Shown here: positions 1 to 22,159 of the stretch, piece by piece
How the letters are laid out: each line of letters opens with the position of its first letter
Position numbering within the stretch: the stretch's first letter is position 1
NCBI GenBank assembly: GCA_034440375.1
Contig: JAWXBZ010000150.1
Span: 1 to 26,653, forward strand
Direction of reading: 5' to 3'
Source of the DNA: Candidatus Eiseniibacteriota bacterium
GTDB taxonomy: Bacteria > Eisenbacteria > RBG-16-71-46 > JABDJR01 > JAWXBZ01
Length of the DNA: 26,653 bases
Translations under genes and position numbers: made by a program
The notes under the pieces: model-generated
Told to the model about the DNA's origin: nothing
Seen by the model: the letters and a program-made list of their open reading frames with translations, nothing else
Database searches by the model: none

Positions 1-2235
1 GGCATCCCGCGGGATGCCCCGTATGTCACTCCGCCATGATTCCTCGAAGCTCGAGGATTCATCGTGATAACTCCAGGCGCGGAGATCACCGTAGAAAGCG
101 CCGGTTCGCTGCCGCGACTCGCCGATCAGGTCATGGTGGCCATCACCATCCAGGTCGAGCAGGACAGGCAGGTAGGTCGCTGCATCCGGCGCGCCACGTC
201 GAACCGGATGTTGGGGTGAGACACCCTGGATGGTGATGAACGACGTGGAATCGGTGACCAGCCCGGCGTCGTTCTGGTAAGACGCCACCCACCGGTACGC
301 CCCGTGGGGAAGCGGTTGGTCGATACCAATCTTCGGATTCCGGCTCGACACCTGGCGCTGGAAGGCCGCGGAAAAAGCGGCGACCGGCTGATTCGACTGG
401 ACAAACATCAACTGTCCAAACACCGGCTCATCCGCATCGGCGAGCACACGCACCCCGAAGCCAGCCCCTCCGGTTACCGGATCGACGGACAGGACCGGAA
501 AGCTCTCCAATCCCGTGATGACCGGTGGCGAGTGATCGATACGCACGCGCCGTTCGCGGAACGCCAGCACCCGGTCCAGGCCGAGCGCCTCGACCCGCAC
601 CACCCAGGTCGTTTCCGGCTGATCGCCGACGTACAGCCGGGCCAGGGTTTCGCCCTGTGCCGAGCGACGCGTTTCCAGGTGAATTGTCCGCCAGGCTTCC
701 AGGTCTTGATCCTGCGAAGGACCCGAACCGACCGGGCGCGCCAGGACACGCCAGCCGCGTACGCCGCCGCCGAAGACGCTGCCGTGGACCACGAGTGAGT
801 CGTCCACGCTTATGCCGTCGTCGAGTCCGTCGAGTCGGATCACCGCGTCACCCGACACGCCGAGCGCCGCATCCACTCGAAGCAGCCGCCCTCCCCTGGC
901 CGACTCCATTGGCGGCAAGGGGCTCGCCGATGACTGGTACAGCGCCTCGATCAGGCGGGCGGCCGACCAGGCCGGATGTTTGTCCATGAGAAGAGCCAGT
1001 GCTCCGGCGGCCACCGGGGCGGCCAGGGAGGTGCCCGACTTGGGGGCGGTCCCGCCGCCGAGTTCCGTCGTCAGGATGCCGGCTCCTGGTGCCAGGAGTT
1101 GAACGGCCGGCCCGAACGTGGAGAAGGAGGCGCGCATTCCTTCGCGATTGGAGGCGCCGATCGACAGGACACCGGCCAGGCTGGCCGGATGAAAGGGGAG
1201 GTTGTCACCCGCGTTTCCCGCGGCTGCCACGACGACCACGCCGCGGTCGATGGCGTAGTGCACCGCTTCCTCCAGGATCAGCGAGCGAACGACATCGCCA
1301 AATGACAGGTTCAGGATGTCGGCCCCGTTGTCGACGGCGTAGACAATGGCGGCCGCGGCGTCATCCTCGGCCAGGTAGCCGAGCGAAAAGCCGGTACCGG
1401 GCTGGAAACCGGCGCGCAGCGGCATGATTCGACTCTTCCAGGCCACACCTGACCCGCCGACACCATTGTTTCCCACCGCGGCCGCGGCGCCGGCCACCCA
1501 GGTGCCGTGCCCGACATCGTCCGATGGATCGGCGTCCCGATCGCGATAGTCCCCGGCCCCGATGATCTCGGGCACATCGGTGAAATCGTATCCGTTCACG
1601 TCATCGACGTAGCCATTCCCGTCGTCGTCGACGCCCGGCGCTCCGTCCGACTCCGCCTGGTTCAACCAGAGATTGGCCGCCAGGTCTTCGTGATCGAGAT
1701 CGATGCCGGTGTCGATGATGGCGATGATGACGCCCTCGCCGGTTGCCTCATTCCAGGCTGCCGGTGCACCGATGGCCTCGTGTTGCCACTGGGTGGCCAG
1801 CTCCGGATCGGTCGGCTGGGCGTTTGTGGAAAGCAGCTGCAGCAGGTGGATCGGCGTGGCCATCTCCACGTCCGGGTCGGCCGCCGCCTCACGCGCCGCC
1901 AGAACGGGATCGATACCGGCCGGCAGCTGAACGCGAACGAATCGTCGAATGTCATCGGTCGGCGTCCTGGAAGCATCCGGCCGGCGAGGCGCTCGTGCCG
2001 GCGCCGTTCCCTCGATCAGTGGCGTCAGCCGAACCCGCTGGCCGGATGGGGTCAACCACTCGCGGCGTGGGGCGCCATCCGTATCGGCGCGAAAGCGGAC
2101 GACAATTTGCCCCGGGACGACCGCCGAGGAAGCGGCGGCGTGCGAGGAGGTCACCGACGGGCTAGTCGGCAATACAGTCAGCACCGATGCAGACAGGACC
2201 GACCAGACAAGCCGCGCGGTGGTGGCCCGGTTCAT
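1..2235 (-). CDS. Secreted S8 (subtilisin-family) serine peptidase with C-terminal extension including an FG-GAP-like motif; 3' end truncated by the window edge
   Basis: Not in the ORF track because there is no stop in the window. Hand translation from ATG 2235 (MNRATTARLVWSVLSASVLTVLP..., signal-peptide-like) stays open to base 1. Catalytic triad motifs IAIIDTG, GHGTWVAG and SGTSLAAP; oxyanion AAAGN; Ca-loop DDDGNGYVDD; DLDGDGHHDLI near the edge. Confidence 0.93.
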   Translation of the reverse strand, partial: MNRATTARLVWSVLSASVLTVLPTSPSVTSSHAAASSAVVPGQIVVRFRADTDGAPRREWLTPSGQRVRLTPLIEGTAPARAPRRPDASRTPTDDIRRFVRVQLPAGIDPVLAAREAAADPDVEMATPIHLLQLLSTNAQPTDPELATQWQHEAIGAPAAWNEATGEGVIIAIIDTGIDLDHEDLAANLWLNQAESDGAPGVDDDGNGYVDDVNGYDFTDVPEIIGAGDYRDRDADPSDDVGHGTWVAGAAAAVGNNGVGGSGVAWKSRIMPLRAGFQPGTGFSLGYLAEDDAAAAIVYAVDNGADILNLSFGDVVRSLILEEAVHYAIDRGVVVVAAAGNAGDNLPFHPASLAGVLSIGASNREGMRASFSTFGPAVQLLAPGAGILTTELGGGTAPKSGTSLAAPVAAGALALLMDKHPAWSAARLIEALYQSSASPLPPMESARGGRLLRVDAALGVSGDAVIRLDGLDDGISVDDSLVVHGSVFGGGVRGWRVLARPVGSGPSQDQDLEAWRTIHLETRRSAQGETLARLYVGDQPETTWVVRVEALGLDRVLAFRERRVRIDHSPPVITGLESFPVLSVDPVTGGAGFGVRVLADADEPVFGQLMFVQSNQPVAAFSAAFQRQVSSRNPKIGIDQPLPHGAYRWVASYQNDAGLVTDSTSFITIQGVSPQHPVRRGAPDAATYLPVLLDLDGDGHHDLIGESRQRTGAFYGDLRAWSYHDESSSFEESWRSDIRGIPRDA

Positions 2236-2253
2236 CAAGTCGTCCGCGTTCGC

Positions 2254-3258
2254 CTACCAGCCCTTGCCGATGGAAATGCGATGCGTCGTGCCGAGGTCCG
2301 ATTTGAACGGGACATACGCATATTCGAAACGGAAGCTGCCATCGTACGCCGCGCCGAACGAGAAGTCCTGGCTCTGGTCAAGCTGCTCGTTGTCCGCGGC
2401 GTTGGCGACATTGGGAAGGAAGTCGGCACGGTAGCCCGCCAGGAGTGAGAGTCCCTCGCGATAACGATACTGGGCACCAAATCGGAGGGAGGGATCGCTG
2501 TTCTTCTCGGAAATGAAATCGCCGGCAAAAAGGAGGCTGCCGGACAGGGACGAAACCGGCTTGGTCCAGGCCAGCCCAACCTGCACGGTCTGGGGCAGAT
2601 CAAACTCGCCCGCATCCGCCAGGTCGAACTGAATCTTGCCACCCAGGTTCCGGAGCGAGGCCCCGGCCTCGAGGCCGTTGATGGGCGTCGCCCAGGTGGC
2701 GCCGATGTCGGCCGCGAAGGCATCGGCCGACACGTCGTCGATCGATTCACGCAGATACTTGCCGGTAAGGCCCAGCGAAAATTTCTCGGAGAAGGCCCTG
2801 GCGTAGGAGACGCCAAGCGACAGGTCGGAAAATCCAAACGATACTTCCTGGTTGCCGACCTCGTCGCGGGCATCGAAGTCACTGGCATAGGCCGTTCCGA
2901 AAGACAGTCCGAAACCGTTCTGGCCGACGTTGCGGGCCAGGCTGACCTGCTCGTACCGAATGTCCGAAAGCCACTCGGTGTGCGTTCCGGCAATGTCCCA
3001 GCCTTCCAGGCGGGAAAGTGCGGCGGGATTCCAGTAGGCGCTGGTGGCATCGCCGATCCAGCCACTCACGGCACCGGACAGCGCGGCGGCACGGGCGCCG
3101 GCGCCAAGTCCGAGAAACGGCAGGGCACTGTTGCCGGCCTGTGCCATTACCGGCCGGACTTCGAGTAACAGGCAACCGAATGCCGACAGGAGAAAGCAGG
3201 CAGGGGTGGCAATCCGGCGAACAACGGTCATGGATCCCGGGACTGGCATCATCATCAT
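2254..3258 (-). CDS. PorV/PorQ-family outer-membrane beta-barrel protein (T9SS-associated type)
   Basis: Signal peptide, then the family-typical FLGLGAGARAAALSGA...DATSAYWNPAAL; amphipathic beta strands; C-terminal THRISIGKGW. RBS AAAGGAG upstream of several tandem ATGs, so the exact start is uncertain. Confidence 0.85.
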   Translation of the reverse strand: MMMMPVPGSMTVVRRIATPACFLLSAFGCLLLEVRPVMAQAGNSALPFLGLGAGARAAALSGAVSGWIGDATSAYWNPAALSRLEGWDIAGTHTEWLSDIRYEQVSLARNVGQNGFGLSFGTAYASDFDARDEVGNQEVSFGFSDLSLGVSYARAFSEKFSLGLTGKYLRESIDDVSADAFAADIGATWATPINGLEAGASLRNLGGKIQFDLADAGEFDLPQTVQVGLAWTKPVSSLSGSLLFAGDFISEKNSDPSLRFGAQYRYREGLSLLAGYRADFLPNVANAADNEQLDQSQDFSFGAAYDGSFRFEYAYVPFKSDLGTTHRISIGKGW

Positions 3259-3322
3259 TGGACTCCTTTTCGAACGACCCGGACATTATAAGCCCGAAAT
3301 CGGTTCCGCATCTCCATATTGA

Positions 3323-6300
3323 TCATCGCAGGACAGCCAGCTTGAGCGTCGATTCCGTCGGGCCGGATGGCCCCCGGACGGTCAGCCGGGCCAGGTAGAC
3401 ACCCGGGGCGACGGCCGCGCCATCAACTCCCTTGAGATCCCACTCGACAATATTGTCTGTGCCGGCAAAAGTCGATCCGGATAGCGCACGGAGGGGACGG
3501 CCGAGAAGGTCAAAAATCTGGATTTCCACGCTTTCGATCCCCGCGCCGACGCGGTAGTGAAATCTCGTCAATTCGTGGGCCGGATTCGGCATGGCAAAAG
3601 CATCGGCCAGGTCCGGCCCGTTGACCACCGGCTCGTTGGCGCCGGGGAGCAGCAATCCCATCCGGGCACTTCCGCCACGGTGCGCCCCCCAGACCGGGGG
3701 GCCGGCCGCGCGGCCGATCGTTCGAACCTCGACACGGGCCCGATCGAGATAGGGCGCCACGGTGACCAACTCCATATATCCGTCGCCATCGAGATCTTCC
3801 ACGGCCGGGGAGGCGCCGAGGCGCCCGCTGCCGAAGTAGTTCCAATCGCCGAGCCGCCGGCCGGTGGCATCAACGCCGATGACCTGTCCGTCGTCGAGCG
3901 GAAGGATGAATTCCGGATCGCCGTCGGCCGTCAGGTCGGCCACCAGCGGCGCCAGCTGCGGCTCGATGAAGTAGCGCAGTTCGGATGGCACCGTCACCGG
4001 CGAACTTACCAACGACACGCCGTGATAGTTGATGACATGGAAGACGCCGCCGGTTTCGATGGCCAGGACTTCCAGGTAACCATTCCCGTCGACATCCGCC
4101 AGACTGACCTGGTCGTTGCCGGAAGTGAACAGATAGCGCGGCCAGCCCGCGCGTGGGCGGAATACCGGTTGACCATTCTCGACATCCATCTCCAGCGCGT
4201 AGATGTTGCCGTTGGAGGAGGTGACGACCACATCCATCAGGCCGTTTCGATCCAGATCGCCGACCACCGGCGCCGAGTAGTAGGCCGTGTCGGGCAGTGG
4301 CGCCAGGACGAACTCCCGGCTGGTGCCCGGCAGTGGATCGAACAGGTGAAGCTGGACCGTCCCTGTCGTGTCGGAGGAATCGGCGCGGACCGACGCCACG
4401 ATCTCCAGGTGCCCGTCGCCGTCGACATCCACCACCACCGCCGGCAGCTGGCCGTTGCCTGATCGAAGAGATCCGACGCCCCGCGGGATGGGGCGGCCAT
4501 CCTGGCTTACCCCGTAGATTTCAAATCGGGAAAGTCCCGATTCATCGCGCGCGCCGCCGAAGCCGAACTCGACGCCGGGGGTGGTCGGATTCAGGTCGGC
4601 CCCGAACAGCTCCATGGACGGTATCGGATTGGACGAACGAACCAGGACGCCGTCGCCCATCGCGCCAAGCGGCCGGCCATCCGGTCCGCCGTAACCGAAG
4701 ATTTCGCCATCCTCGCCCGGCACCACGATCTCCGCGACATCATCCCCGTTCAGGTCCGCCACGAGCGGCGAGCCGAGCGGCACGCCCAACTCGACAAACG
4801 GCTGCCCCCCGGGCCCCTCCCAGGCGTTCGTGCCATCATCGTTCAAAACGTAGATATTGCCGGCGCGGTCGGCAATGACGATCTCCCGGGCGGGATCCAG
4901 GTCGAGTTGGCCGATCGCCACGTGGTTGCCGCCAACACGGGTTCGGAGTTCACGACTCCAGTCGGCGGCGGCGGCGCCGAAGCGAACACGAAAAGTCATC
5001 ACGGGCCCGGCGGCTGAAATCTGATCGAAGGTGATCCCGGATTGAATGCCGTAGTAGCCGTCGGTATCCGGCGTCGTGTCCGGCCCGAATCGATCCACCC
5101 ATCCGTCGCGGAACGAATCGTACGGACTGCCGAAGGCATCGCGGTCGAGGCCAAGATAATCCAGGTCCTGGATGCCGTCGGCCTCCTCCAGGTCAACCCC
5201 CTTGTGATCGGCCACGGCATTAACCGTGTTGAATGGCAGGTTGTCGGCAATCACCGAGTCGTCGATATGCCAGATCAGGAGGCCCGAGCCGGTGCCCTCC
5301 CCCGGCAGCCACCAATCCCATTCGGCGTCGGCGTAGCTGTCAACGTAGAAGTCAAAATCACAGACCAGCATCGAATCGTTCCCGGTGCGCTCGATTCGGC
5401 ACCTGGAACTGTCGTTCTCGGTAAAGTTGAATCGGCCGTCCCCGTTGGCATCCTGCAGACGGTTCTCGATCAGGAAGTACTCGTCGCCGCCGATTGGAAC
5501 CTTGATGACGCCGCGAAATCGATCCATGACTATCGCGGGGAGCGACACATCCTGGTCAGCGGTCACGACAATCGGATTGATCCAGCCGACAGCTACCTTC
5601 GACCAGGCCGAAAATTCGGCGGGGACGAATCCGTTGGCATTCCAGGTCCCGGCAGCCATCAGATCCCACGAACCGATCCCCTGGCTCTCGGCAAATACCT
5701 TGTTTTCCGGCGCCACCGTGTCATACAGGTCGGGAAGGCCGAGCGCGTGGCCAAGCTCGTGGCAGATGACGCCCACCGGTGAGAATATAAAGCCGTCCTG
5801 GCTTTCCAATTCGGGATACATGGCCATGTCGGCCACGAAGATCGTGTCCCCTTCCGCGTTGCGGTCGTCGGTGGGGATTCCCCGCTCGGCACCCTCTCCC
5901 GGGAGATAAAAAGCGAAGTCCTCCATTCGGAAGAAGACCGACCAGATCTGTTCCACGCTGTTGTTCAGCACATCGGATTCCTGGCCCGGTCCAGCGTGGA
6001 ACAGAACCACCTGGTCGTACTCCTCGAAATCAACGAAGGGATCGGCAGCCCGCACCGCATCCCGGGCCAGCACCGCCTGCCGAACGCCAATGGAATCGTC
6101 CAGTCCGTAGTAGGCCATCGACTCGGGCATGCGGTACACCGAGGGCGCCAGCGTGGAGTGCAGGGTCAATTGTCCGGCGGAGCTGTCGGTGTAATGCTGA
6201 TTTTGAAAGAGGAGAAGGCGCTCGAAGTAGAGTTGGGTCGAGTCGATCGGCTGGTCGCTGAAATCGACCCGAATGGCCAGGATCCGCAGGGTGCCGAGGG

Positions 6301-6556
6301 TGATCGGATCGCCGGCCGCCGGCTCTGTGGCACTTAGCGCCTGTACGCCGGTTGCGCGGTGCCGGTACCCCTTGAAAACGCGCTCCGGGTCGGCCGCCCC
6401 GCCAAGCGGTGGCGGCAGGCTCTTCTTCTGGGGCACGGGAGGCACGAGGCACGGCCGCGGGGTTGGGGCCAACGGATTGCCCACGGCCTCGAGTGAGGTG
6501 CCGAGGATCAAGGAAAAAAACAGGAACAGGATCAGGTGTAGGACGCGGACGATCAA
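3323..6556 (-). CDS. M6 (immune inhibitor A-like) metalloprotease with FG-GAP repeats and C-terminal FlgD-Ig/T9SS-type sorting domain
   Basis: Signal peptide; ILAIRVDFSD, FHAGPGQE, CHELGHALGLPDLY, GSWDLMAAG, EYFLIENR and GLLIWHID are M6 hallmarks. Repeated DLDGDG/DLNGD motifs; tail PNPA...IFDLLGR...WDLKGVDGAAVAPGVYLARL. TTG start with GAGGAG RBS. Confidence 0.92.
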   Translation of the reverse strand: MIVRVLHLILFLFFSLILGTSLEAVGNPLAPTPRPCLVPPVPQKKSLPPPLGGAADPERVFKGYRHRATGVQALSATEPAAGDPITLGTLRILAIRVDFSDQPIDSTQLYFERLLLFQNQHYTDSSAGQLTLHSTLAPSVYRMPESMAYYGLDDSIGVRQAVLARDAVRAADPFVDFEEYDQVVLFHAGPGQESDVLNNSVEQIWSVFFRMEDFAFYLPGEGAERGIPTDDRNAEGDTIFVADMAMYPELESQDGFIFSPVGVICHELGHALGLPDLYDTVAPENKVFAESQGIGSWDLMAAGTWNANGFVPAEFSAWSKVAVGWINPIVVTADQDVSLPAIVMDRFRGVIKVPIGGDEYFLIENRLQDANGDGRFNFTENDSSRCRIERTGNDSMLVCDFDFYVDSYADAEWDWWLPGEGTGSGLLIWHIDDSVIADNLPFNTVNAVADHKGVDLEEADGIQDLDYLGLDRDAFGSPYDSFRDGWVDRFGPDTTPDTDGYYGIQSGITFDQISAAGPVMTFRVRFGAAAADWSRELRTRVGGNHVAIGQLDLDPAREIVIADRAGNIYVLNDDGTNAWEGPGGQPFVELGVPLGSPLVADLNGDDVAEIVVPGEDGEIFGYGGPDGRPLGAMGDGVLVRSSNPIPSMELFGADLNPTTPGVEFGFGGARDESGLSRFEIYGVSQDGRPIPRGVGSLRSGNGQLPAVVVDVDGDGHLEIVASVRADSSDTTGTVQLHLFDPLPGTSREFVLAPLPDTAYYSAPVVGDLDRNGLMDVVVTSSNGNIYALEMDVENGQPVFRPRAGWPRYLFTSGNDQVSLADVDGNGYLEVLAIETGGVFHVINYHGVSLVSSPVTVPSELRYFIEPQLAPLVADLTADGDPEFILPLDDGQVIGVDATGRRLGDWNYFGSGRLGASPAVEDLDGDGYMELVTVAPYLDRARVEVRTIGRAAGPPVWGAHRGGSARMGLLLPGANEPVVNGPDLADAFAMPNPAHELTRFHYRVGAGIESVEIQIFDLLGRPLRALSGSTFAGTDNIVEWDLKGVDGAAVAPGVYLARLTVRGPSGPTESTLKLAVLR

Positions 6557-6616
6557 GAACTCTCCTCACGAGGGCCCGCGGACGGACCGGAAGTGCGCAA
6601 GATTTGCAGGGACAAG

Positions 6617-6646
6617 AGTCTATCGGACTGCGCGCGCTACCGTCAA
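6617..6646 (-). promoter_or_regulatory. sigma70-type promoter for the M6-PorV-S8 operon
   Basis: Minus strand TTGACG-N18-TAGACT, about 60 bp upstream of the M6 start. Confidence 0.55.
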
Positions 6647-6648
6647 CG

Positions 6649-6688
6649 AAGGGCGCCGCCCGGGTCCTACCCGGGCAGCGCCCCTTTT
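6649..6688 (-). terminator. GC-rich hairpin downstream of the DUF4384 gene, probable terminator (possibly bidirectional)
   Basis: AAGGGCGC-C-GCCCGGG-TCCTA-CCCGGGC-A-GCGCCCCTTTT inverted repeat; the T-run is on the + strand and only TTCGTT follows on the - strand. Confidence 0.55.
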
Positions 6689-6741
6689 CTCCCGTCGCGG
6701 CAACATTGGCCGCACCGGTCATCTATGGGTAATACCGGGGT

Positions 6742-7497
6742 TTACTGGCCCCGCAAATGCCGCCGCTTCTCATGTCCCTGCCCCCGCCCCTGGCGGCCCG
6801 AACGTCCCGGACGACAGGTCGGGTCCCCCACGAAAAAGGAGGTGTAACCCCGGGCTGTACCCCGCTCCCATCGCTCGACCGGTACCTCGATCAGACGCGA
6901 AGCCACCCGATCCATCGCCACGAAACGGTCCCCGCGAACGAACCCGGTCCGGGCCGAGGTGCCGCCCAGCTGGTCGTACTCGTGGCGGCCGGCCAGGCCA
7001 TCCCAGCACTCGACCCACCGATCCGCGATCGGCTCGTCGCTGGCCACCACCACGACGAACTCCTCCCCGGGAGGTCCATCGGCCACCAGCCGGTAATTGG
7101 CATCGCGGCCAGGCAGGTGATGGAGCACGCCGCCGCGGACATATTCCGGATCCCACGCGCTGCGCGGGTAGAGAAGATGCGTGTGGCCCTCGGTATCGAT
7201 GTCATAGATCACGACGTAGGCATCCCGGTTGACCCGAAAGCTGAATCCGACCGGCTGACCGGGGTAAACCAGCCGCCCATCTCCACCGAGAAGCTCGATC
7301 TGGACATCCAGCGCACGCCGGTCACGGTGCGGTACGGGCACCTCCACAATTCGCTGCGGTGATGGTGGCGCTCCGATGATGCGGCGGTTCGCCGGGGGAG
7401 GCGCCGGGGGCGCCGCCGACGCGGGAACCAGGTTGACGGTGAGGCTCACCAGCGCCACGATGAGAGTGGCCACGCGCATTCCACGAAAGGTCTTCAT
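6742..7497 (-). CDS. Secreted DUF4384-domain protein
   Basis: Signal peptide ending ASA; YPGQPVGFSFRVNRDAYVVIYDIDTEG..LLYP...GPPGEEFVVVVAS matches the DUF4384 pattern; AAGGAG RBS; 2 bp after the upstream stop. Confidence 0.8.
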   Translation of the reverse strand: MKTFRGMRVATLIVALVSLTVNLVPASAAPPAPPPANRRIIGAPPSPQRIVEVPVPHRDRRALDVQIELLGGDGRLVYPGQPVGFSFRVNRDAYVVIYDIDTEGHTHLLYPRSAWDPEYVRGGVLHHLPGRDANYRLVADGPPGEEFVVVVASDEPIADRWVECWDGLAGRHEYDQLGGTSARTGFVRGDRFVAMDRVASRLIEVPVERWERGTARGYTSFFVGDPTCRPGRSGRQGRGQGHEKRRHLRGQ

Positions 7498-7499
7498 GC

Positions 7500-8360
7500 T
7501 TACTTCTCCTTACGATCCGCCGGCACGATATCCTCGGTCGGCGGGGTCGTTGACAATTCCCTGTTCCCGCGGTCCAGTTGCACGGCCCAATCGACCACAA
7601 CCCGTCCGCTCGACACATTCACGACATGGAAGCGGGCGAAATAGCCGTCGCCCGTACGGATTACGTAGTTGTGGCCCTCGATCAGTTCGACCCGCCCGCG
7701 GGGCGACCACCCCTCGATTGGCGCCCAGTCCACCATCGTTGGTGGCCCGAACCCCGAATCCTGAATGTCCGCCTCGGCAGCGGCCACCAGCTCCAGCCGG
7801 CCGCCAACAACCTCGACCCAGACATCGGTGCCGGGTGCGTTGGCCGGCTGCCTCCGCCGATTCACGGTGTCCCACCCGGAAAGCTCGGGACGGCTGCCGA
7901 ACCGATTCCAGAGTTCCAGGTCGTGCCCTTCCGGCCGCGGGGTGTCGAAGACCTCGTCGCCCGAAAGCGGACTCTCCTCGCCACACTCGTCGACCGCTGA
8001 TACCGCGTACCACTCGGTCTCCCCATTCCGGGCGTCGCGGTCCGCGAACCAGGTGGCCGACGTCTCGCCAATCGATTCGAACGGCCCATCCGAGTCGGAG
8101 CTGATGTACACCCGGTAGTGATGCAGGTCCTCCTCGGGCGATGGATTCCAGTACAGATCCACCCGCCCATCCCCGGTGACCGAATAGACACCGTTCGGCG
8201 CAAACGGCGCGCGATCATTCAGGTCGTAACAGTCACAGTCGTCGGTCCAGCACTCGTCGCACTGCGAGCCGGTCAACGCCAGGACCACCAGGCCCGCCCC
8301 AAGAATTCCGGTCGCCGGATTCCTCCGGATCCCTTTCCACCAACCCTCACCAGGTTTCAT
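7500..8360 (-). CDS. Putative lipoprotein with fibronectin type III-like domain
   Basis: Hydrophobic N-region ending LTGSQC; Cys/Asp-rich linker; PFAPNGV..GDGRVDLYWNP..DLHHYRVY...YAVSAVDECGEES is Fn3-like; GGGAGG RBS. Confidence 0.7.
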   Translation of the reverse strand: MKPGEGWWKGIRRNPATGILGAGLVVLALTGSQCDECWTDDCDCYDLNDRAPFAPNGVYSVTGDGRVDLYWNPSPEEDLHHYRVYISSDSDGPFESIGETSATWFADRDARNGETEWYAVSAVDECGEESPLSGDEVFDTPRPEGHDLELWNRFGSRPELSGWDTVNRRRQPANAPGTDVWVEVVGGRLELVAAAEADIQDSGFGPPTMVDWAPIEGWSPRGRVELIEGHNYVIRTGDGYFARFHVVNVSSGRVVVDWAVQLDRGNRELSTTPPTEDIVPADRKEK

Positions 8361-8397: not shown

Positions 8398-8414
8398 TGC
8401 AACCTGGATGCCAG
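8398..8414 (-). promoter_or_regulatory. sigma54 (-24/-12) promoter for the Fn3 lipoprotein-DUF4384 pair
   Basis: Minus strand CTGGCATCCAGGTTGCA = GG-N10-GC, matching TGGCAC-N5-TTGCW, about 40 bp upstream of the ATG. Confidence 0.8.
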
Positions 8415-8772: not shown

Positions 8773-10221
8773 TTACGAGTACGAGACCCGCTCCTTCAGT
8801 CGAAAGCCGATCGGTCTCGTGGTCTTCAGGAAAACGCTCTTCTCGGCCTCGGCGGCCTTGATGAAATCAACCTGCCGGACCTGCGAATGGGCGCCGCCCC
8901 GCCGAGCTGCGCCGCGCAAAGCGGTAACGACGGCGTTCTTGATGTTGCCGCCGCACAGAGCAAAGTTGGCGGCCAGTTCGGCAAAATCGACATCGCTGGC
9001 CAGAGGAACGCGCTTCGAGATGAGGCCGGTCCAGATCTGTTCGCGCTCGGCCGGGCCCGGTACGCCGAATTGGATCGTGGCGCCAAGGCGACGGGCCAGC
9101 CCCTCGTCCAGCGAGGTTTCGCGATTTGTGGTCAGGATGCAGAGGCCTTCGAACTGCTCGAGTTCCTGCAGCAACAGGCTGACCTGGCGGTTGTAGGCCC
9201 GATCGTTATAGTGACCGCCCTCCAGGCGTCCGGCCAGGATGGCATCAGCTTCGTCGAGCAGCAGCACGGACCCGGAGTCGCGGGCAGCGCGGAAGACGGC
9301 CACGATGTTCTTTTCAGTCTCACCGATCCACTTGCTCTCGAGCTGCGAGTAGTCGGCGACCAGTAGCTTGCAACCCAGACTGCCGGCCAGCGCCTCGGCC
9401 GACATGGTCTTGCCGGTTCCGGGAAGGCCGGAGAGCAGGACCACGACGCCGCGCCCTTTTTCGAGCAGGCGGCCGAGTTCCCAATCGTCAAACAGGACGC
9501 GCCCGTCGTTCATCTGCCACAGGACGTCCTCGAGTTGCTGACGAACGGCCGTTTCGAGGACCACCCGTTCCAGATGGAAACGTGGGGTGATGAAGCGGTA
9601 CGGCCCCTCGGGCAGGACGTCCGTCATGGCCTGCGCGGATTCGCCGCCATCCGGCCGGGCACGAACGCCCAGGATTTCGCGGAGGGTCTTTTCGGTCACC
9701 TCGTAGCTGGACCGAAGAAAATTGCATCCTTCCTCTTCCGGAAGAGCCCGGACCAGTCCGTGATTCAGCAGTGTCGAGGATGAGCTGAGGTAACGGGAGG
9801 CACGCAGGGCCTCGACGTGGCTGGTGAACAGGAGATTCAGGATGTCGTTGCCCGAGGTAATCCGACCCTGGCCGCGCCCGGCCGATTCGTTGAACAGAAG
9901 AACCAGCAGGATGTCGTATTCCGCGCGGGTGAGCTGGTGGGTTTCAGCGAACTGATCGATGGCGAATCGATTGCCGGGAGCCTCGCTCTCGCGAAGGCGG
10001 CGGGCAATGGCCTCTTCACGGCGCAAAATCGTGCGATCGAGGTCGTCGATGGAGCCAAGGAGGTGGCTCTTGCCGTGACGCTCATTCCAGCGGGCGCTTC
10101 GCTCGAAGTCACCGGCTTCGGTTCGGAGGGCGTAGGCGTCGCACTTGAGGCGGATGAGTTCGAAGCGATCGGCCAGGTATTCGAACTGATCGCTGTACGT
10201 TGTTGCTGACTCGCGCCGCAT
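8773..10221 (-). CDS. AAA+ ATPase with N-terminal winged-helix-like region (Afp15/Pvc15-like type)
   Basis: Walker A GLPGTGKT, pore loop SKWIGETEKNI, Walker B LLLDEAD, sensor TTN, Arg finger LARRL, GGNIKN; C-terminal RPIGF. Confidence 0.9.
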   Translation of the reverse strand: MRRESATTYSDQFEYLADRFELIRLKCDAYALRTEAGDFERSARWNERHGKSHLLGSIDDLDRTILRREEAIARRLRESEAPGNRFAIDQFAETHQLTRAEYDILLVLLFNESAGRGQGRITSGNDILNLLFTSHVEALRASRYLSSSSTLLNHGLVRALPEEEGCNFLRSSYEVTEKTLREILGVRARPDGGESAQAMTDVLPEGPYRFITPRFHLERVVLETAVRQQLEDVLWQMNDGRVLFDDWELGRLLEKGRGVVVLLSGLPGTGKTMSAEALAGSLGCKLLVADYSQLESKWIGETEKNIVAVFRAARDSGSVLLLDEADAILAGRLEGGHYNDRAYNRQVSLLLQELEQFEGLCILTTNRETSLDEGLARRLGATIQFGVPGPAEREQIWTGLISKRVPLASDVDFAELAANFALCGGNIKNAVVTALRGAARRGGAHSQVRQVDFIKAAEAEKSVFLKTTRPIGFRLKERVSYS

Positions 10222-10386
10222 GGTCTTAAGCCCCCTCGCGGATCCCTGCGACAGTTGTCGCGGGATGAAACACCCGCCGATGGACTCTGAAGACCAGTGT
10301 TCTTGGGGCGATCAGAGGCGATACCACAGGTCTTCAGGCCATCGGCCGACGGTGTTTTGGAGGTCCCCCCTCCGACCTCTTTGACA

Positions 10387-10403
10387 AGCATTGGTTGTGC
10401 CAA
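10387..10403 (-). promoter_or_regulatory. sigma54 (-24/-12) promoter for the AAA+ ATPase
   Basis: Minus strand TTGGCACAACCAATGCT = GG-N10-GC, downstream of an AT-rich intergenic region. Confidence 0.75.
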
Positions 10404-10572
10404 CTACCAATACTTCCTGAAGGAGGCATCGCATGTCGATCTAACCTATTGCCGTGTTTGACTTTAATGAACCATGTGGATATCTGCTCAATCGGGGCTG
10501 CTGGCTGGAATACCCTCATCAACTATTAATTGATTTTCCAGTCCTGGGGAGCGATCACCATAAGTTAGATAA

Positions 10573-10585
10573 TATCAATCGGTTG
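10573..10585 (+). promoter_or_regulatory. IHF-consensus site in the AT-rich intergenic region
   Basis: TATCAATCGGTTG matches WATCAANNNNTTR; it lies about 170 bp from the -24 box, which is farther than usual. Confidence 0.45.
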
Positions 10586-10626
10586 GCATTGTAAAGATAA
10601 TTTATATGCAAATGGGATAACTCTTG

Positions 10627-13600
10627 TCAGTGCGTGGAGCGACGCTCGAGACCATGCTCCTTGATCTTCTTCAGAAGGCACGGGTAGCTGATCTTCAATT
10701 CCCGCGAAGCCTGGGACTTGTTCCACTGAGAGCGATCGAGAGCGTCATTGATGACGCGCCGCTCGGTGCGGGCCACTTCATCACGCAGGCTGGCAGCCCC
10801 ATTGGCCGGAGCCGCCACGGACACCGCGGGCCGGTCGAATGGGAGTGCGCTCAATCCGATCGGCTCGTTCTCGTCTGACAGTACCACCAGCCGCCGAATC
10901 GTCTTTTCCAGCTCGCGGACATTTCCGCGCCAATCGTACTCGTTCAGCGCCCGATGCACTTCCGGCAGAAGTACCAGGTCCCCCTTGCCGTACTGGGTTG
11001 AGAAGCGGGCCAGGAAGTGCTCGACCAGCAGTGCGATGTCGTCCGGCCGCTCGCGGAGCGGTGGCACCCGGATGATGAAGTCATTCATCCTGTAGTAGAG
11101 ATCCTCGAGGAAGCGGCCGCTGCGGATCCTCTCCTTCAGTTCGACGTTGGTGGCACAAATCACGCGCGTATCAACCGTGGTCCAGCGTGTCGAGCCGACC
11201 GGCCGGATTTCCTTCTTGTCAAGGACATGAAGCAGCTTGGCTTGAAGCGTCTCCGTCGTCTTGTCGACCTCATCCAGGAAGAGCGTTCCCCCCTCGGCTT
11301 CCTTGAACAAGCCGGTCTTTTCGCGGACAGCGCCTGTGAAGGCACCCTGCGTGTGACCGAAAAGCTCACTCTCGAGAAGTTGCTCGGGAAGGGCGGCGCA
11401 GTTGATCTGGATGAATGGCTTGCCGCGTCGGCGGCTCTGGTCGTGAATCGACTGGGCAATGAGCCCCTTGCCGGTGCCGGTTTCGCCCTCGATCAGGATG
11501 CTCGCGCCCGAGTCACCCACCTTCTCCGCCATGCGAAGAATTTCGATCATCCGCGCGTTCTGCGTCACGATTTCGGTGTAGGGCTGGTGCCAGAGCTGGT
11601 TCTTCAGGCTCTGGTTCTCCTTGAGCAACTCTTTCCGCTGATGCTCCAGCACGGAGAGCGAGGCCAGGTTGGTCAGGAGCGTCAGGAGATTGAGGTCGCC
11701 CTGATTGAAGGCACCGATCTCATTGTCGTGAAGTCTGTCGGCGTAGAAGAGGCCGGGGGTACCGCTTGGCAGCGCCAGCGGCAGGAGCGCCAGGCTCCGG
11801 ATCCCGGGCATGCCTGCCCGCTCCTCGAGCGAGAACCTGGGATCACCGGAGAGCTGACTGACAATGACGGGGCGCGGGTCAGCGCTCAGGTCCTTGATCG
11901 GCCGGGCCAGCTTGGCGATCAGCGATTCAGCTTCGACCAGGGTCAAACCCTGGAGGGCCACGACTTTCATGGCGCTGCCGCCATCGCCGAGCGCCACGAA
12001 GCCGCGATCGCTCTGACTGCGGGAGATGCCGAGGCGCAGCACTTCGCCCAGCGCCGTATTGACATCGCTTGATCCGCGGAAGAGGCGGGTCAGTTCCTGG
12101 AAGGACTCGAGGCCACCACCGGCGCGCACCCAGTGATCGGCGTATTCGTTTTCGACTTCACGCCGCAGGCGGACCACGCGGCTCCACAATTCCGGCTCCT
12201 CGTCCTCGGTGGTCAGCGTCATGGCCCGATCGAGATACACCGAGCCCTCATCCAGCCGGCCACGGCGCACGAACCACTCCGCCGCAGCCCAGGCGGCGCG
12301 GGCAGCGTAGCCGCGCGACTCGAGCGAGAGGAAAATCCCGAAGGCGCGCTTGATCCACTCGGCCGGCTCGGTTTCACTGCCGTCCCCGACTTCGCCGGCC
12401 ATGAGAAAAGTCCGGGCCAGTTCGAATGATTCGCCAACGCGGGTGAGTGAATCGATGGCCTCACCGATGAACTGGCGCGCCTCCACTTCCCGGCCAAGCC
12501 GCGCGTAGGCCAGCCCCACGAGTCGACAGGCAATGGCACGCTCGTACTGATCGTTGATCTTCGAGGACGACGAGAGTGCCTTCTGCCCCAGTGCCAGGGC
12601 TTCTTCGTACATTTCCTGGCCGAGGCGGGCTTCGCCAAGGCGCCGGCATATTTCGTTGACCAGATCACCCAGCGGCGCAATTTGTTCGGCCCTGGCCAGC
12701 GCGCGGACAAGCAGGGCGGCGGCGGCTTCATATTCCTCGCGATCCAGGTGCAGCTCGCCGGTGAACTCCAGCGCCAGGATCGTTTCCCGCGAGTAGGCGT
12801 TGGCCTCGGCCCGCTCCAGCGCCCCACGATACAGCTCGGCCGCCACGCTCCAACGCCGACGGCGGCGCTCGATGTTGCCCAGCGCCAGGTCGATCGGCAC
12901 CAGTTGGGCCACGAATGAATTTTCCGTGGCGATCTGGCGTGCCCGCTTGAGCGATTCCTCGGCCAGGTTCCAATCGCCGAGCTTGAAGTGAACGATGCCG
13001 AGATTGAGGCGAACGGCCACGCCGAATCGGATCAGCGCCTGCTTCTCAGCCAGTTCGAGAGCGCCGGCAAAGCAGCGGATGGACTCACGCCACTCGCAGG
13101 CGTTCTTGTGCAGAATGCCGAGGTTGTTGAGCGCCTTTGCGGTGCCGACCTTGTCGTCGATTCGACGGAAGGTGGAGAGAGCGCTGGTATAAAACTGGCC
13201 CGACTGCACCGGGTCGCCAAGGCGGATCCAGAGCGAACCAAGTGTCAATTCAAGCTGTGCGATGGCCGAATTATCGCCGGTTCCGCGCAGGAGCTTGTAG
13301 GCCAGATCAGCGTAGCGAAGGGAGCGGGTGTAGCGTCCGAGTTCGTACAGAAGCGTGGCACGCAGGGCATAAAGCTTGCCAAGCTGCACACCGTCGCGGC
13401 TGCTTCGGAGATCGACCTTGGCCTCATCGAGGCACTCAATCGCTTGCTGCATATCGCCGCGGGCCTGGTGGCACCGGGCCACCTTGAGGAGGAGGACCCC
13501 GCGTGCTTCGTGGTCGCCGCGCCCGTCGAGCCGGCCCAGGGCCTGGGCATAGCTCTCCAGCGCCGAGGAGTAACTCTCGGTTCGGAAGAAGAAATCGCCC

Positions 13601-13704
13601 CGGTCTACAAGCCGGGCACTCTCGTCCCCATCAGCCATGACGGCTGGGGACGGTCGCGGCTTTGACCTCATGCGACCTCGTTCCTGCTGCTGGAAATCTT
13701 CCAT
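10627..13704 (-). CDS. sigma54-dependent enhancer-binding protein with long N-terminal TPR array, GAF domain, AAA+ domain and Fis-type HTH
   Basis: About 500 aa of TPR-like repeats (ALNNLGILHK, LNLGIVHFKLG, LALGNIERR); GAF-like RSLALLPL..GLFYAD..FNQGDLNLL; GETGTGKG, ESELFGH, GAFTGA, FLDEVD, RFLEDLYYR, WRGNVRELE; HTH WNKSQASRELKIS. Start set at ATG 13704 rather than the ORF-track 13749; no receiver domain. Confidence 0.92.
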   Translation of the reverse strand: MEDFQQQERGRMRSKPRPSPAVMADGDESARLVDRGDFFFRTESYSSALESYAQALGRLDGRGDHEARGVLLLKVARCHQARGDMQQAIECLDEAKVDLRSSRDGVQLGKLYALRATLLYELGRYTRSLRYADLAYKLLRGTGDNSAIAQLELTLGSLWIRLGDPVQSGQFYTSALSTFRRIDDKVGTAKALNNLGILHKNACEWRESIRCFAGALELAEKQALIRFGVAVRLNLGIVHFKLGDWNLAEESLKRARQIATENSFVAQLVPIDLALGNIERRRRRWSVAAELYRGALERAEANAYSRETILALEFTGELHLDREEYEAAAALLVRALARAEQIAPLGDLVNEICRRLGEARLGQEMYEEALALGQKALSSSSKINDQYERAIACRLVGLAYARLGREVEARQFIGEAIDSLTRVGESFELARTFLMAGEVGDGSETEPAEWIKRAFGIFLSLESRGYAARAAWAAAEWFVRRGRLDEGSVYLDRAMTLTTEDEEPELWSRVVRLRREVENEYADHWVRAGGGLESFQELTRLFRGSSDVNTALGEVLRLGISRSQSDRGFVALGDGGSAMKVVALQGLTLVEAESLIAKLARPIKDLSADPRPVIVSQLSGDPRFSLEERAGMPGIRSLALLPLALPSGTPGLFYADRLHDNEIGAFNQGDLNLLTLLTNLASLSVLEHQRKELLKENQSLKNQLWHQPYTEIVTQNARMIEILRMAEKVGDSGASILIEGETGTGKGLIAQSIHDQSRRRGKPFIQINCAALPEQLLESELFGHTQGAFTGAVREKTGLFKEAEGGTLFLDEVDKTTETLQAKLLHVLDKKEIRPVGSTRWTTVDTRVICATNVELKERIRSGRFLEDLYYRMNDFIIRVPPLRERPDDIALLVEHFLARFSTQYGKGDLVLLPEVHRALNEYDWRGNVRELEKTIRRLVVLSDENEPIGLSALPFDRPAVSVAAPANGAASLRDEVARTERRVINDALDRSQWNKSQASRELKISYPCLLKKIKEHGLERRSTH

Positions 13705-13788
13705 GGCCTGACGCCCCCGACGACCATAGAGCACGTGTCGCCAACACAAACGGTCGGCGAATTCTGGCTTACAACATCTGGCTAAAGG

Positions 13789-14130
13789 TCAGCGGACAGA
13801 AAACCCCCGGATCGATCCGAACAATCCGCCAAAAACGCGAAACAGCGTACCCAGCAGGCTGCGACCGAGAGACGGCGGACCGTTCCCGGGCAGTGGCTGG
13901 CTATCGCCGGTCTGCGTCGTCTGGTCGGGATCGCCCCTCAGGTCCGTCCTACCCGTTGTCATGCGGGAAGACGATCCGAGAGCGCCCCGGGACGAATCAG
14001 CGACCTGCTCGACCACGGGCCCCGGCTTCTTGCTGGCTGCCAGAACCTCGCGATCCGGAAGGAGTGCTGTCAGCGCCCACAGCGAGATACTGAACACCAG
14101 GGTGAATTTGAGGACTCGCTTTGGATGCAT
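13789..14130 (-). CDS. Small secreted 113-aa protein (signal peptide, low-complexity linker with GDPD motif, cationic amphipathic C-terminal helix); candidate signalling pro-peptide
   Basis: ATG 14130 with a strong GAAGGAG RBS; MHPKRVLKFTLVFSISLWALTALL (n- and h-regions); TDLRGDPDQTTQTGD; tail SLGRSLLGTLFRVFGGLFGSIRGFSVR. It has its own promoter upstream. Confidence 0.75.
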   Translation of the reverse strand: MHPKRVLKFTLVFSISLWALTALLPDREVLAASKKPGPVVEQVADSSRGALGSSSRMTTGRTDLRGDPDQTTQTGDSQPLPGNGPPSLGRSLLGTLFRVFGGLFGSIRGFSVR

Positions 14131-14315
14131 GAAGACTGCTCCTTCACTCCGATTGGCACCGGGATGCTTTCGACGGGAGCCCGATGCCAGGACCTGGGTG
14201 AAACTGCCAACTGGGTGGTTGAGAAGTGGGGACCTCGAAAACCCGTGGCAGGAAGGCGGGAACACGGCGCGACGGTCACGCTGATCCGACGCGGCATGTG
14301 ACGCTCCCCGAAGGA

Positions 14316-14345
14316 AGTATAGGAACGTGACTCCGGTACTGTCAA
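14316..14345 (-). promoter_or_regulatory. sigma70 promoter for the peptide + TPR-bEBP unit
   Basis: Minus strand TTGACA-N18-TATACT, near consensus. Confidence 0.75.
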
Positions 14346-14366
14346 AGCATTTGAGTCCGGTGGAGC

Positions 14367-14384
14367 TTGTGATTTTTTTCACAA
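14367..14384. promoter_or_regulatory. CRP/Rex-type operator palindrome
   Basis: TTGTGA-TTTTTT-TCACAA contains the exact TGTGA-N6-TCACA core; it is 21 bp upstream of the -35 box and overlaps the ppx stop codon. Confidence 0.65.
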
Positions 14385-15332
14385 AGTTTCGCCCCAGGCC
14401 AGAAGTGCCCGACCGTGACGCAGTCCAAAGACCGAAGTTTCGAACTCTGTTCGATTCATCACCTGCAGTGCGGACCCAAGGAGCGCCGCACCGCCAGGCA
14501 GGAGACGGGCGCGGCCCCTTCCGAGCCCCCCTCGATCCATCCGCTGCTGGACGGTCAAACCGGCCAGTTCACCGACGGCAGCCAGCAGGTTCTTTCGAGA
14601 TACCCGGAGCCCATGGACCCGACCGGCTTCAAATGGTTGGATGTCATGGACCCAGGCGGCGGCGGCACAGGCTGACCCCCCGACGGCCATCAGCCGCTCG
14701 TTGCCAACGAGTCCGGACTTGTCGGGCGCAAGCGGTGCCAGTTCCGCTGCCAGTATTGTGCTGGCCGAATGGACGGCCATGCTCCCGGGCGGGTCGGCGT
14801 CAAACCAGCGGTCCGTGACCAGTAGAGCGCCGATCGGCAGGCTGCACGAGGCCTGTCGACTGAGGCCCTCACCGCGGATCAACTCGGTACTGCCTCCCCC
14901 CACATCCAGAACAGCGATCGCACCGCCAGCCGGCGGGAGCGACCAGGCCACGGCACCGAGATAGGAGGCATCGGCCTCCTCTTCGCCCGACAGAACACGA
15001 ATTGGATGGCCGATTCGGCTGGACAACGCATCCGCTGCCTCGGCGCCATTGGTCGCGCGACGGAATACTTCCGTTCCGACGATATCCAATACCCGGACGC
15101 CTGTGTCACGGGCCCGCTGCATGGCCTCGATCAGGCAGGCCTCGGTGCGCAGAAGATCGTTGGGTTCGATCCGACCGGTTCGGATGAGACTGCCGCCGAG
15201 GCAGGTGACGTCACCGAATTCGTCCAGAACGACCCGTCCGCCGGGAGTGTCCTCGGCCACAAGGAGTCGCACGGTATTCGTCCCGATATCAATCACGGCC
15301 ACCTGGCCTCTGTGACCCGGGGTCAAGCTCAA
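14379..15332 (-). CDS. ppx: Ppx/GppA-family exopolyphosphatase (short form, no C-terminal HD domain)
   Basis: IDIGTNTVRL, GTEVFRRATNG, VLSGEEEA, LDVGGGSTE, SLPIG and GLRHG motifs; TTG start overlaps the ArsR stop. Confidence 0.88.
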   Translation of the reverse strand: MSLTPGHRGQVAVIDIGTNTVRLLVAEDTPGGRVVLDEFGDVTCLGGSLIRTGRIEPNDLLRTEACLIEAMQRARDTGVRVLDIVGTEVFRRATNGAEAADALSSRIGHPIRVLSGEEEADASYLGAVAWSLPPAGGAIAVLDVGGGSTELIRGEGLSRQASCSLPIGALLVTDRWFDADPPGSMAVHSASTILAAELAPLAPDKSGLVGNERLMAVGGSACAAAAWVHDIQPFEAGRVHGLRVSRKNLLAAVGELAGLTVQQRMDRGGLGRGRARLLPGGAALLGSALQVMNRTEFETSVFGLRHGRALLAWGETL

Positions 15333-16953: not shown

Positions 16954-18512
16954 ATGGCCGGCGAACGGCGCGGCACTCTCCGATTTCAGCTTCAAGTGGC
17001 CTTTCTCCTCCTGTCGCTGCTTCCGGCCGTGATTCTTACGCTGATCCTCCTGCAGTCGTTGCCGTGGGCACTCGACCGGTGGGCCAGCCCCGCCGTGCGC
17101 CAGACGTTCGAGAACGCCCTTTCCATCACCAACGATACGTTGACCCGAATCCAGAACGACCTGCGGCAGCGCTGGTCACTGTCCATCGAAGTGGCGAAGC
17201 CGGCTCTCTGGGGCGAACTGAAACAGCACGCCCCGGAAATCGGCGAGCGTCTCAATGTCGACTTCATGGTGCTATATCCGGCGTCACCGGATTCGCTCTG
17301 GACGCCGGTGCGTATCCTCACCCGTGATCCCCTCGTCGAAGCACCGGTGGGCCTCGTGCAATGGGGAAAGGGCAATCTCGAGTCGGGACTTTTCCTGCGG
17401 GGCAGCCGGGGCGAACTGGCATTCGCCCAGAGGATGCCGCGCCCCAAGGGTCCGCCCGGACCGGTGCTCGCCGTCGGGATCTATCTCGATCCGGCCCTCT
17501 ATGAGAGACTCGCCGATCTGAACAGTGCCGTGTCGCGACATGAGCAGTTGCGCGCCGATGCCAACCTGAACAAGGCGGCAGTGCAAATCGGAGCCATGCT
17601 GCTGCTTCTGGTACTCGGTGTCACCAGCGTCTGGGTCGCCGGGCGGTTGTCCGAAAACCTGTCGAGTCCGGTCGAGGAGTTGGCGCTGGCCATGGACCGG
17701 GTGGCCCAGGGTGACCTCGAAACGCGCGTCACACCGAGCGGTACCCGCGAAATCAGGAGCCTCGTGTCCGCCTTCAATCAAATGACCGCCGAGCTGACGG
17801 AGACACGCGATCGCCTGGCGCGCGCGGAACGGGCCCAGGCCTGGCGCGACGCGGCCCTGCGCGTCGCTCATGAAATTCGTAACCCGCTCCAGCCGATCAC
17901 CCTGGCCCTCCATCGCATTGACAGGCTCCTGGCGCACGACCCGGCACTGCGGGCCGAAGTTCAGCCGGCCGTCCGTTCGATCCTGGACGAGGTCGAGGCG
18001 CTGAAGCGGCTCGCCGCGAACTTCGCGGAGCTGGCGCGCATGCCGGAACCCGATCCCGAAATCACCAATCTCGCGACGTTTGTCGCCGGAAGCGCTCCCC
18101 TGCTCGAGTTTCCGGGCGTTGTGCTTGCGATCGAAGTCGCCGTACCGTCGCCGGCCGCGCTGGTGGATCGTGGCCTCCTCCGGGAGGTCCTGACCAACCT
18201 GGTCAAGAATGCCGCGGAGGCCATGCCCGAAGGTGGTCGTGTCATTCTTCGCGTGGCGGCCAACCGTGCGGGCGGTCACGACTGGGCCACGATCGAAATC
18301 GAGGACACCGGGCCGGGGGTGCCCCCGGCCGAACGGGTGCGGATTTTCGAACCTCATGTCACCTCCAAGGCGGAAGGTTCGGGGCTTGGCCTGGCCATCG
18401 TGGAAAGGATCGTGGGCGCCCACCACGGTCGGGTGGAAGTGGTTGATGGCGCGTCGGGCGGAGCCCTCTTCCGCGTCTGGCTGCCGACCGTGGCATCCCC
18501 GGAATCGCTGTC

Positions 18513-18516: not shown

Positions 18517-19906
<1,390 letters not shown>

Positions 19907-19910
<4 letters not shown>

Positions 19911-22131: not shown

Positions 22132-22159
22132 GAGGCGGTCCTCCGATGCCATCTCGATC

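Follow-up and report, generated by a model that had tools for sequence, protein, structure and literature searches.

Does a small exported protein control the sigma-54 activator whose gene lies directly behind its own? This question is raised by a locus in contig JAWXBZ010000150.1 of a Candidatus Eisenbacteria genome (3.96-Mb assembly, 264 contigs, 94% complete). Positions 1 to 26,653 of this contig are called the window. In it, a gene for a 113-amino-acid (aa) exported protein is followed by a gene for a 1025-aa bacterial enhancer-binding protein (bEBP) with tetratricopeptide repeats (TPRs) and a GAF domain. An earlier note on this DNA had read the pair as a peptide-sensing system with the logic of the RRNPP regulators. 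To our knowledge, the use of cytoplasmic TPR receptors to sense exported peptides counts as a speciality of Bacillota and their phages, and the inputs of the sigma-54 activators known to us are phosphorylation, small molecules or partner proteins and not secreted peptides. An abstract-level literature search brought up no publication that describes such a system in Eisenbacteria or peptide-linked TPR-GAF sigma-54 activators. If the peptide reading is true, peptide signalling would extend to diderm bacteria, here an uncultured phylum of the FCB group, and enhancer-binding proteins would have a new class of input.

The cassette is best explained as a conserved signalling unit of Candidatus Eisenbacteria, and its sequence occurs in mat and sediment habitats. 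Should the small protein turn out not to be the ligand, the cassette would still be unusually complete, with a promoter, partner gene, sensor, enhancers, sigma-54 promoters, a covarying RNA and a protease/PorV operon, and testable. No described family covers any of these parts. The promoter, small open reading frame (ORF), activator and output elements are all on the minus strand, as are the window coordinates given below unless the plus strand is named.

Association of the small gene with TPR activators

The pairing of the small gene with the activator gene is beyond chance. The TPR region of the activator has a relative, an activator orthologue, in all 41 genomes of the class. In 38 distinct orthologous loci the upstream DNA extends for 800 nt or more, and every one of them carries a small ORF on the same strand, about 100 aa long and ending 45-200 nt before the activator. 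The upstream DNA was checked by a hydrophobicity-and-motif rule and by eye, and four loci with too little of it were excluded. One of the 38 ORFs is cut to 60 aa on a contig full of frame breaks and another has the deviant motif GDNDRP. A small ORF is also found in 17 of 17 more distant orthologues and before all seven paralogous TPR activators examined (L059, L060, L062-L065 and one on contig C11 of this genome). The earlier note had proposed to check whether homologous regulators lack an adjacent small secreted ORF; the ORF is present in all comparable loci and is duplicated as a pair with its activator.

A profile built from 36 small proteins gave roughly one match per genome, in 28 of the 61 genomes searched. 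The matches listed number 32; of the 30 fetched as loci, 29 directly precede a TPR activator and the remaining one is at a contig end. Families without a profile match still carry the small ORF, in a form that has diverged beyond the reach of the profile. Among 1.84 billion representative proteins the same profile picked out only 36, of which 34 are 88-165 aa long. A six-frame scan of the 3.96-Mb genome found 168 signal-like ORFs of 80-135 aa. Two of these have both the motif described below and a hydrophobic C-terminus, and they sit upstream of the only two TPR activators of the genome, which encodes about 19 sigma-54 activators in all. Since the criteria of the scan were drawn from the family itself, this control speaks for specificity and not for discovery.

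The second pair in this genome is on the plus strand of contig C11 (locus L126:3237-6804), with the small ORF at 52236-52607 and the activator at 52711-55803. The small protein has the motif GADPNDF, and the activator has a TPR-AAA+-helix-turn-helix (HTH) architecture with no Pfam match to GAF. A sigma-54 promoter, TGGCACGGCGAATGCT, is located 68 nt ahead of the small ORF, and in L062-L064 a sigma-54 promoter likewise precedes the small ORF; this layout suggests feedback or autoregulation. The pair has a GGDEF gene upstream, and a gene for a 707-aa TPR protein and a TonB-like gene downstream.

It is likely that the small gene and the activator are functionally coupled.

Promoter and gene layout of the pair

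The sigma-70-like promoter TTGACA-N18-TATACT (14316..14345; 11/12 matches) is located about 185 nt upstream of the small ORF, where the earlier note had placed a single sigma-70 promoter. It is the sole such site within 10100-14500, compared with a mean of 0.6 in shuffled sequence. Sites of the form TTGAC[ATG]-17/18-TATxxT with at least 10/12 matches occur at -141 to -220 in 18 other loci of the module-A type (19 of 37 with the window included), and one further locus has a sigma-70-like site at -44. Judged from the promoter at -141 to -220 in these 19 loci, the long 5' untranslated region (UTR) of the small ORF (about 185 nt, 14131-14315) is conserved in length.

An AAGGAG Shine-Dalgarno sequence (14144-14139) is found 8 nt ahead of the ATG at 14130. 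The small ORF (14130-13789) and the 84-nt gap from its stop codon to the activator ATG at 13704, on the same strand, are both as the earlier note had described. From this layout it is proposed that a sigma-70-type promoter co-transcribes the small gene and then the activator gene.

A weak terminator-like hairpin with a T-rich tail lies in the last codons of the small ORF (13806-13828). It could raise the level of the small-gene transcript over that of the activator; the number of such sites is not above that in shuffles.

The small exported protein

The small protein (113 aa, 13789..14130) has a signal peptide, a disordered middle and a C-terminal helix. The signal peptide (residues 1-33) contains a basic n-region and a 16-residue hydrophobic core and ends in LAA, followed by S. 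Its relatives also begin with a basic stretch; their hydrophobic core is 13-16 residues long, and positions -3 and -1 are occupied by small residues (AxA-like). Called by inspection and a hydrophobicity rule, the N-terminal signal of these proteins reads as a cleavable Sec signal and not as a membrane anchor. The AlphaFold model has helices at residues 4-23 and 88-109 and is otherwise unstructured (mean predicted local distance difference test, pLDDT, 63). The second of these falls within a cationic amphipathic C-terminal helix (residues 88-113, 13792-13869).

Most of the 62 relatives are 85-126 aa long. The middle of the protein is generally disordered and is net negative in 47 of 61 small proteins, and the last 25 residues, a basic and aromatic-rich helix, are net positive in 51 of 61. 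The conserved core consists of G-[DE]-P-D and, directly behind it, an aromatic or aliphatic residue. The pattern [GAN][DE]P[DNI] is found in 40 of the 62 distinct small proteins; GD[GN]DG-x-V-V-K replaces it in 20 that belong to one family group, and the remaining two have GDPT. The motif classes track clades. In the window protein GDPD occupies residues 66-69 (13924-13935). Nine proteins have two copies of the motif, and the residues that follow agree within a protein and vary between proteins (QY/QY four times, AF/AF, EII/EII). This pattern fits a repeated functional unit.

The dN/dS ratio is 0.15-0.52 in all 17 close pairs of small genes, and the position, length, strand, Shine-Dalgarno sequence and motifs are conserved; therefore, the small ORF is a real gene. 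Other assemblies also annotate it as a gene of about 100 aa. The gene evolves fast; identity to the nearest relative is 25% for the small protein versus 60% for the TPR domain. A tblastn search with the window protein (E 1e-5) found no homologue, even in the closest relative, and the relatives had to be traced by rules on motif and hydrophobicity and, after that, by a profile. Within its own genome the protein gave chance matches only. Pfam, NCBIfam and the ESM Atlas hold nothing for the window protein, and no Pfam or NCBIfam model fits any of the 36 profile members.

The sigma-54 activator

The activator (10627..13704) is 1025 aa long, or 1014 aa from the next Met, as in public gene calls. 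Pfam and a motif check agree with the earlier description of a TPR-GAF-AAA+-HTH activator without a receiver domain; Pfam finds none, and the protein has no membrane segment. Twelve TPRs occupy residues 20-500 (12205-13647) in the model, and Pfam TPR_12, TPR_2 and TPR_1 match over about residues 40-500. A long linker helix (residues 504-543) leads from the TPRs to the GAF domain (residues 548-684, 11653-12063; Pfam GAF_2 at 548-683). This is followed by the Sigma54_activat AAA+ domain (PF00158, 217 bits; residues 712-878, 11071-11571), AAA_lid_14 and a Fis-type HTH_8 (residues 978-1016, 10657-10773). The Walker A (GETGTGKG, 740-747), GAFTGA (787-792) and Walker B (LFLDEV, 808-813) motifs are intact. 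The best NCBIfam equivalog scores are below their cut-offs (NorR 320 versus 476, NifA 318 versus 529), the public names of the family are generic, and its named members are Eisenbacteria. The activator is a true enhancer-binding protein whose input is of an undescribed kind.

The TPR region was modelled from a 52-sequence alignment with a pLDDT of 90 and a predicted template modelling score of 0.82, giving 24 helices, or 12 repeats, over about 480 aa. The inner asparagines noticed earlier in LNNLG (192-196) and LNLG (233-236) correspond to N193 and N234, which are invariant in 52 of 52 TPR domains, paralogues included. Foldseek ranks highest a set of TPR domains whose solved structures have an extended peptide in the groove, namely TONSOKU with histone H3, Pins/LGN with Insc, NuMA or Frmpd4, and APPBP2 with a degron. 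The superhelix also matches Rap and NprR, tied with LGN, TONSOKU, APC5 and MalT. When solved chains are compared by sequence profile, consensus TPRs, Pins/LGN and kinesin light chains come closest (E 1e-27 to 1e-20), and there is one weak match to Rap. Since the best matches are peptide-bound TPR domains, the groove is of the peptide-binding kind; the fold does not single out RRNPP.

The claim that the activator has no partner kinase stands with a qualification. On the plus strand, 3 kb away, Pfam identifies a histidine kinase (16954-18516) together with an NtrC-type response regulator (18513-19910). They look like a pair of their own. The kinase carries a HAMP domain, and in most loci the NtrC-type regulator is found with RlmN in conserved synteny upstream of the cassette.

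Candidate enhancer sites, sigma-54 promoters and the structured RNA

The sigma-54 promoter P1 (TGGCAC-N5-ATGCT, 10387..10402) is located 225 nt behind the activator stop codon. A promoter of this type is found 3200-3350 nt past the activator start in nearly all orthologous loci, and rpoN is present in the genome on contig C93. Of 23 loci, 20 have a 17-bp palindrome, TAT[CA]AA-N5-TT[GT]ATA, with at most two mismatches, compared with a mean of 0.85 and a maximum of 4 of the 23 in shuffles. The palindrome is placed at -180 to -207 and/or, often as a second copy, at -114 to -133 relative to the promoter. It was found upstream of the small ORF in 0 of 37 loci. The window has two candidate enhancer sites (10573-10588 and 10517-10535), which are imperfect copies with atypical spacers of 4 and 7. 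A second sigma-54 promoter, P2 (TGGCATCCAGGTTGCA, 8398..8413), is 38 nt ahead of the gene for a 286-aa exported protein, and most orthologous loci have a second promoter before the homologue of this gene. Since P2 precedes the 286-aa gene, the protease/PorV operon behind it may have an activator-dependent start of its own.

The predicted transcript from P1 begins with a conserved structured RNA (10263..10377). Its 5' end has an invariant GGAGG-loop-CCUCC hairpin, which is joined by a long covarying stem. In a 15-sequence subset the structure comprises 38 pairs, 13 of them with compensatory changes, and 99.3% of the alignment cells are paired versus 28-48% when the partners are slid. RNAalifold on a mixed 24-sequence alignment recovered the 5' hairpin alone. 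With the covariance model R1, a homologue of the RNA is recognised in distant families too, in the corresponding position; in this genome the one match of the model is the window element itself (10263-10377, 18 bits, E 0.035). Rfam has no family for the window or the leader.

In most other families, which form one large group, the RNA is a free-standing small RNA (sRNA) of about 135 nt with a terminator (e.g. L053:13313-13450 and L047:9141-9278). The window RNA has no terminator or T-run and continues as the 5' leader of a gene for an AAA+ ATPase with an N-terminal winged-helix domain (AAA-WHD; 8773..10221), the first gene behind P1. This gene, with Pfam AAA and WHD matches and both Walker A and B present, is found at the junction of RNA and operon only in the order to which the window belongs. 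Its N-domain is a variant winged helix with a weak likeness to anti-phage IteA and proteasomal ATPases. In seven loci the sRNA was no better able to pair with the 5' UTR of the small ORF than shuffles were (z -0.1 to +2.2).

Judging by their arrangement, the enhancer sites and sigma-54 promoter are predicted to drive the structured RNA and the surface-protease/PorV operon.

The likely regulon and neighbouring features

The genes within 1..8360 are the likely regulon, and the operon behind the activator is syntenic across the class. The families in this series were assigned with Pfam and NCBIfam. The 286-aa exported protein (7500-8360) is followed by a DUF4384 protein (6742-7497). Next is an M6 metalloprotease (3323-6556) with an intact HELGH motif, FG-GAP repeats and a C-terminal domain like those of the type IX secretion system (T9SS). 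A PorV/PorQ-family outer-membrane protein (2254-3258) and an S8 subtilase (1-2238), which runs off the window, complete the series.

The M6 protease has a weak T9SS type-A sorting tail and stands beside PorV/PorQ, giving a T9SS-like cargo and shuttle pair in Eisenbacteria under predicted sigma-54 control. A 230-aa ORF at 6030-6722 was considered as a further member of the regulon and rejected; it has no homologue in other loci, is rich in Arg, Pro and Gly and is probably not a gene. Elsewhere in the window a near-consensus -24/-12 site, TGGCACGCCAATTGCG (22160-22175), is found at the start of ORF 21088-22176.

Proposed mechanism and alternative explanations

In the proposed mechanism, the small pro-protein (about 100 aa) would be exported by Sec as the cognate signal of the activator. 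It would then be cleaved, perhaps by two enzymes of the regulated operon, the M6 and S8 proteases. Either the motif, acidic G-[DE]-P-D-x-aromatic/aliphatic, or the C-terminal cationic helix would re-enter the cytoplasm as a fragment and bind the Asn-lined TPR groove, which would switch or release the AAA+ ring. The GAF domain may be a second input. The active ring would bind the two palindromic sites behind its own stop codon and open P1, producing the structured RNA that is here fused to the AAA-WHD gene. It would probably also open P2 and so express the secreted-protease/PorV operon. Export, cleavage, import, binding and the sign of regulation are all proposed steps, and the full peptide-ligand mechanism is held tentatively, with a probability somewhat short of an even chance. 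It is favoured because the pair is co-inherited and co-duplicated, the motif is repeated, the groove is of the peptide type, Opp/Dpp import is present and secreted proteases are adjacent.

Several points weigh against a peptide ligand. The motif would be periplasmic in a cell with two membranes, so the model needs both cleavage and import; the Opp/Dpp-type binding proteins encoded in the genome are necessary for the import of a peptide and insufficient to establish it. At 85-126 aa, the precursors exceed validated RRNPP propeptides in length, and they keep a cationic amphipathic helix. Their charge layout would suit a membrane-active peptide with an acidic pro-piece just as well as a pheromone precursor. 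The window motif, GDPDQTTQT, has no aromatic residue. The receptor is twice the size of an RRNPP receptor and its output is of another kind, a sigma-54 AAA+ motor with a Fis-type HTH and a GAF domain. Its fold match does not discriminate, as MalT, APC5 and LGN tie with Rap, and its TPR sequence resembles LGN and kinesin light chains, with the single weak match to Rap. Finally, co-inheritance of neighbours within one phylum equally fits a shared operon whose products make no direct contact.

The main alternative to a peptide ligand is that the small protein is a co-expressed product of the envelope. It could be a membrane-active cationic peptide with an acidic pro-piece, or a periplasmic or inner-membrane adaptor, and the TPR-GAF region would read another protein or a small molecule. 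The genes would then be linked merely through a common envelope and surface-protease programme. The acidic middle, the basic and aromatic-rich C-terminal helix and the helix predicted at residues 88-109 fit such a product. So do the predicted extracytoplasmic location of the mature protein, with an activator that has no membrane segment, and a likely regulon of secreted proteases and an outer-membrane protein. However, a generic cargo is unlikely to co-duplicate with each TPR activator paralogue or to occur only there (2/2 in the genome, 29/30 profile matches). In the main module the small gene is in the operon of the regulator and not in the regulated operon, and the intragenic duplication suggests that the motif, and not the helix, is a functional unit. 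This explanation is possible, though doubtful.

The topology would need no import if the pre-protein acted before export. It may bind the TPRs as an anti-activator or co-activator while unexported, so that Sec export sets its level and the activator reports export capacity. An export-coupled anti-activator follows the logic of FlgM, PspF/PspA and NifA/NifL are precedents for partner-controlled activators, and the presumably co-transcribed genes in fixed order would suit this arrangement. However, Sec substrates are usually exported fast and no sequence feature indicates regulated export. The conserved features are in the mature part of the protein, and the motif duplication suggests an extracellular product. 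Control of this kind is improbable.

It is far less probable that the small protein is a surface-attached, low-complexity protein with a C-terminal sorting signal for an exosortase-like or other enzyme. The motif stands directly before a C-terminal hydrophobic helix in L114, L117, L118 and L121, and the genome has one exosortase-family gene, on contig C112. However, this gene is unlinked, and none of 36 small proteins matches the NCBIfam sorting-signal models at E up to 1, as a signal of the PEP-CTERM type would. The spacing between motif and helix also varies from 3 to about 40 residues, and several of the proteins have no basic tail. Lastly, a chance reading frame in GC-rich DNA, which the want of a family match and of a tblastn homologue in the nearest relative might suggest, is hardly credible given purifying selection in 17/17 pairs, the conserved features of the ORF and its annotation as a gene of about 100 aa in other assemblies.

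Comparison with known systems

The cassette is an RRNPP analogue at best and not a member of the family. As in the RRNPP systems (Rap-Phr, NprR-NprX, PlcR-PapR, PrgX and AimR-AimP), a gene for a small precursor of the Sec type adjoins a gene for a cytoplasmic TPR receptor. Several orthogonal pairs can occur in one genome, and the precursor evolves fast and has intragenic motif duplications. The likely regulon includes secreted proteases; Phr is processed by subtilisin, and the PlcR regulon includes secreted proteases. Unlike in RRNPP systems, the output is a sigma-54 motor, the precursor has a conserved cationic C-terminal helix, and the host is a candidate phylum with two membranes, in which the TPRs are of the LGN/kinesin-light-chain kind.

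The features by which RRNPP pairs are recognised are found here in part. The small protein has a Sec signal (inspection and hydrophobicity rule; helix 4-23), the activator has TPRs, and the 84-nt gap on the same strand falls within the neighbour range of -60 to 400 bp. The receptor, at 1025 aa, is outside the range of 250-500 aa. PMC10075063 gives 21-50 aa for validated RRNPP propeptides and a detection default of 10-100 aa, and it reports intragenic duplication in Phr propeptides. At 113 aa the window protein is just above this default and well above the validated lengths. The RRNPP-like reading of the earlier note is thus borne out in its gene logic, adjacency, asparagines, peptide-type TPR fold and motif duplication, and departs from that family in the size of receptor and precursor, the output and the fold tie with LGN, APC5 and MalT.

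The activator resembles bEBPs that have a GAF domain or are controlled by a partner (PspF/PspA, NifA/NifL, NorR and FhlA). It has an AAA+ domain with GAFTGA and Walker A and B motifs, a Fis-type HTH_8 and a GAF domain before the motor, with a -24/-12 promoter and upstream palindromes adjoining and rpoN in the genome. Control of a bEBP by a separately encoded protein has precedents. Unlike these proteins, the activator has a 12-TPR array before the GAF domain, its candidate partner is exported, and it scores below every NCBIfam equivalog cut-off.

The TPRs of LGN/Pins, TONSOKU and kinesin light chains are the closest by sequence profile and Foldseek and likewise conserve the Asn of their NLG motifs. 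The acidic-aromatic peptide motifs that kinesin light chains bind resemble G-D-P-D-x-Y/F. Unlike the activator, these are eukaryotic scaffolds with no transcription output, and the likeness tells only of the possible kind of ligand.

The output resembles LuxO/Qrr of Vibrio, in which a sigma-54 activator adjoins a sigma-54-dependent sRNA gene; most relatives of the cassette have such an RNA, terminated and about 135 nt long. Unlike the activator, which has no receiver domain, LuxO is a phosphorylated response regulator, and the RNA here is without an Rfam family and in the window is an mRNA leader. A broader reading, which is speculative and less likely than not, is that this two-membrane phylum has an undescribed pheromone family, with orthogonal pro-peptide/TPR-GAF receptor pairs in each genome and a mature signal built on G-D-P-D-x-aromatic. 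These would fire a sigma-54-dependent sRNA and a secreted-protease operon that may mature the signal, combining the logic of RRNPP with that of LuxO/Qrr.

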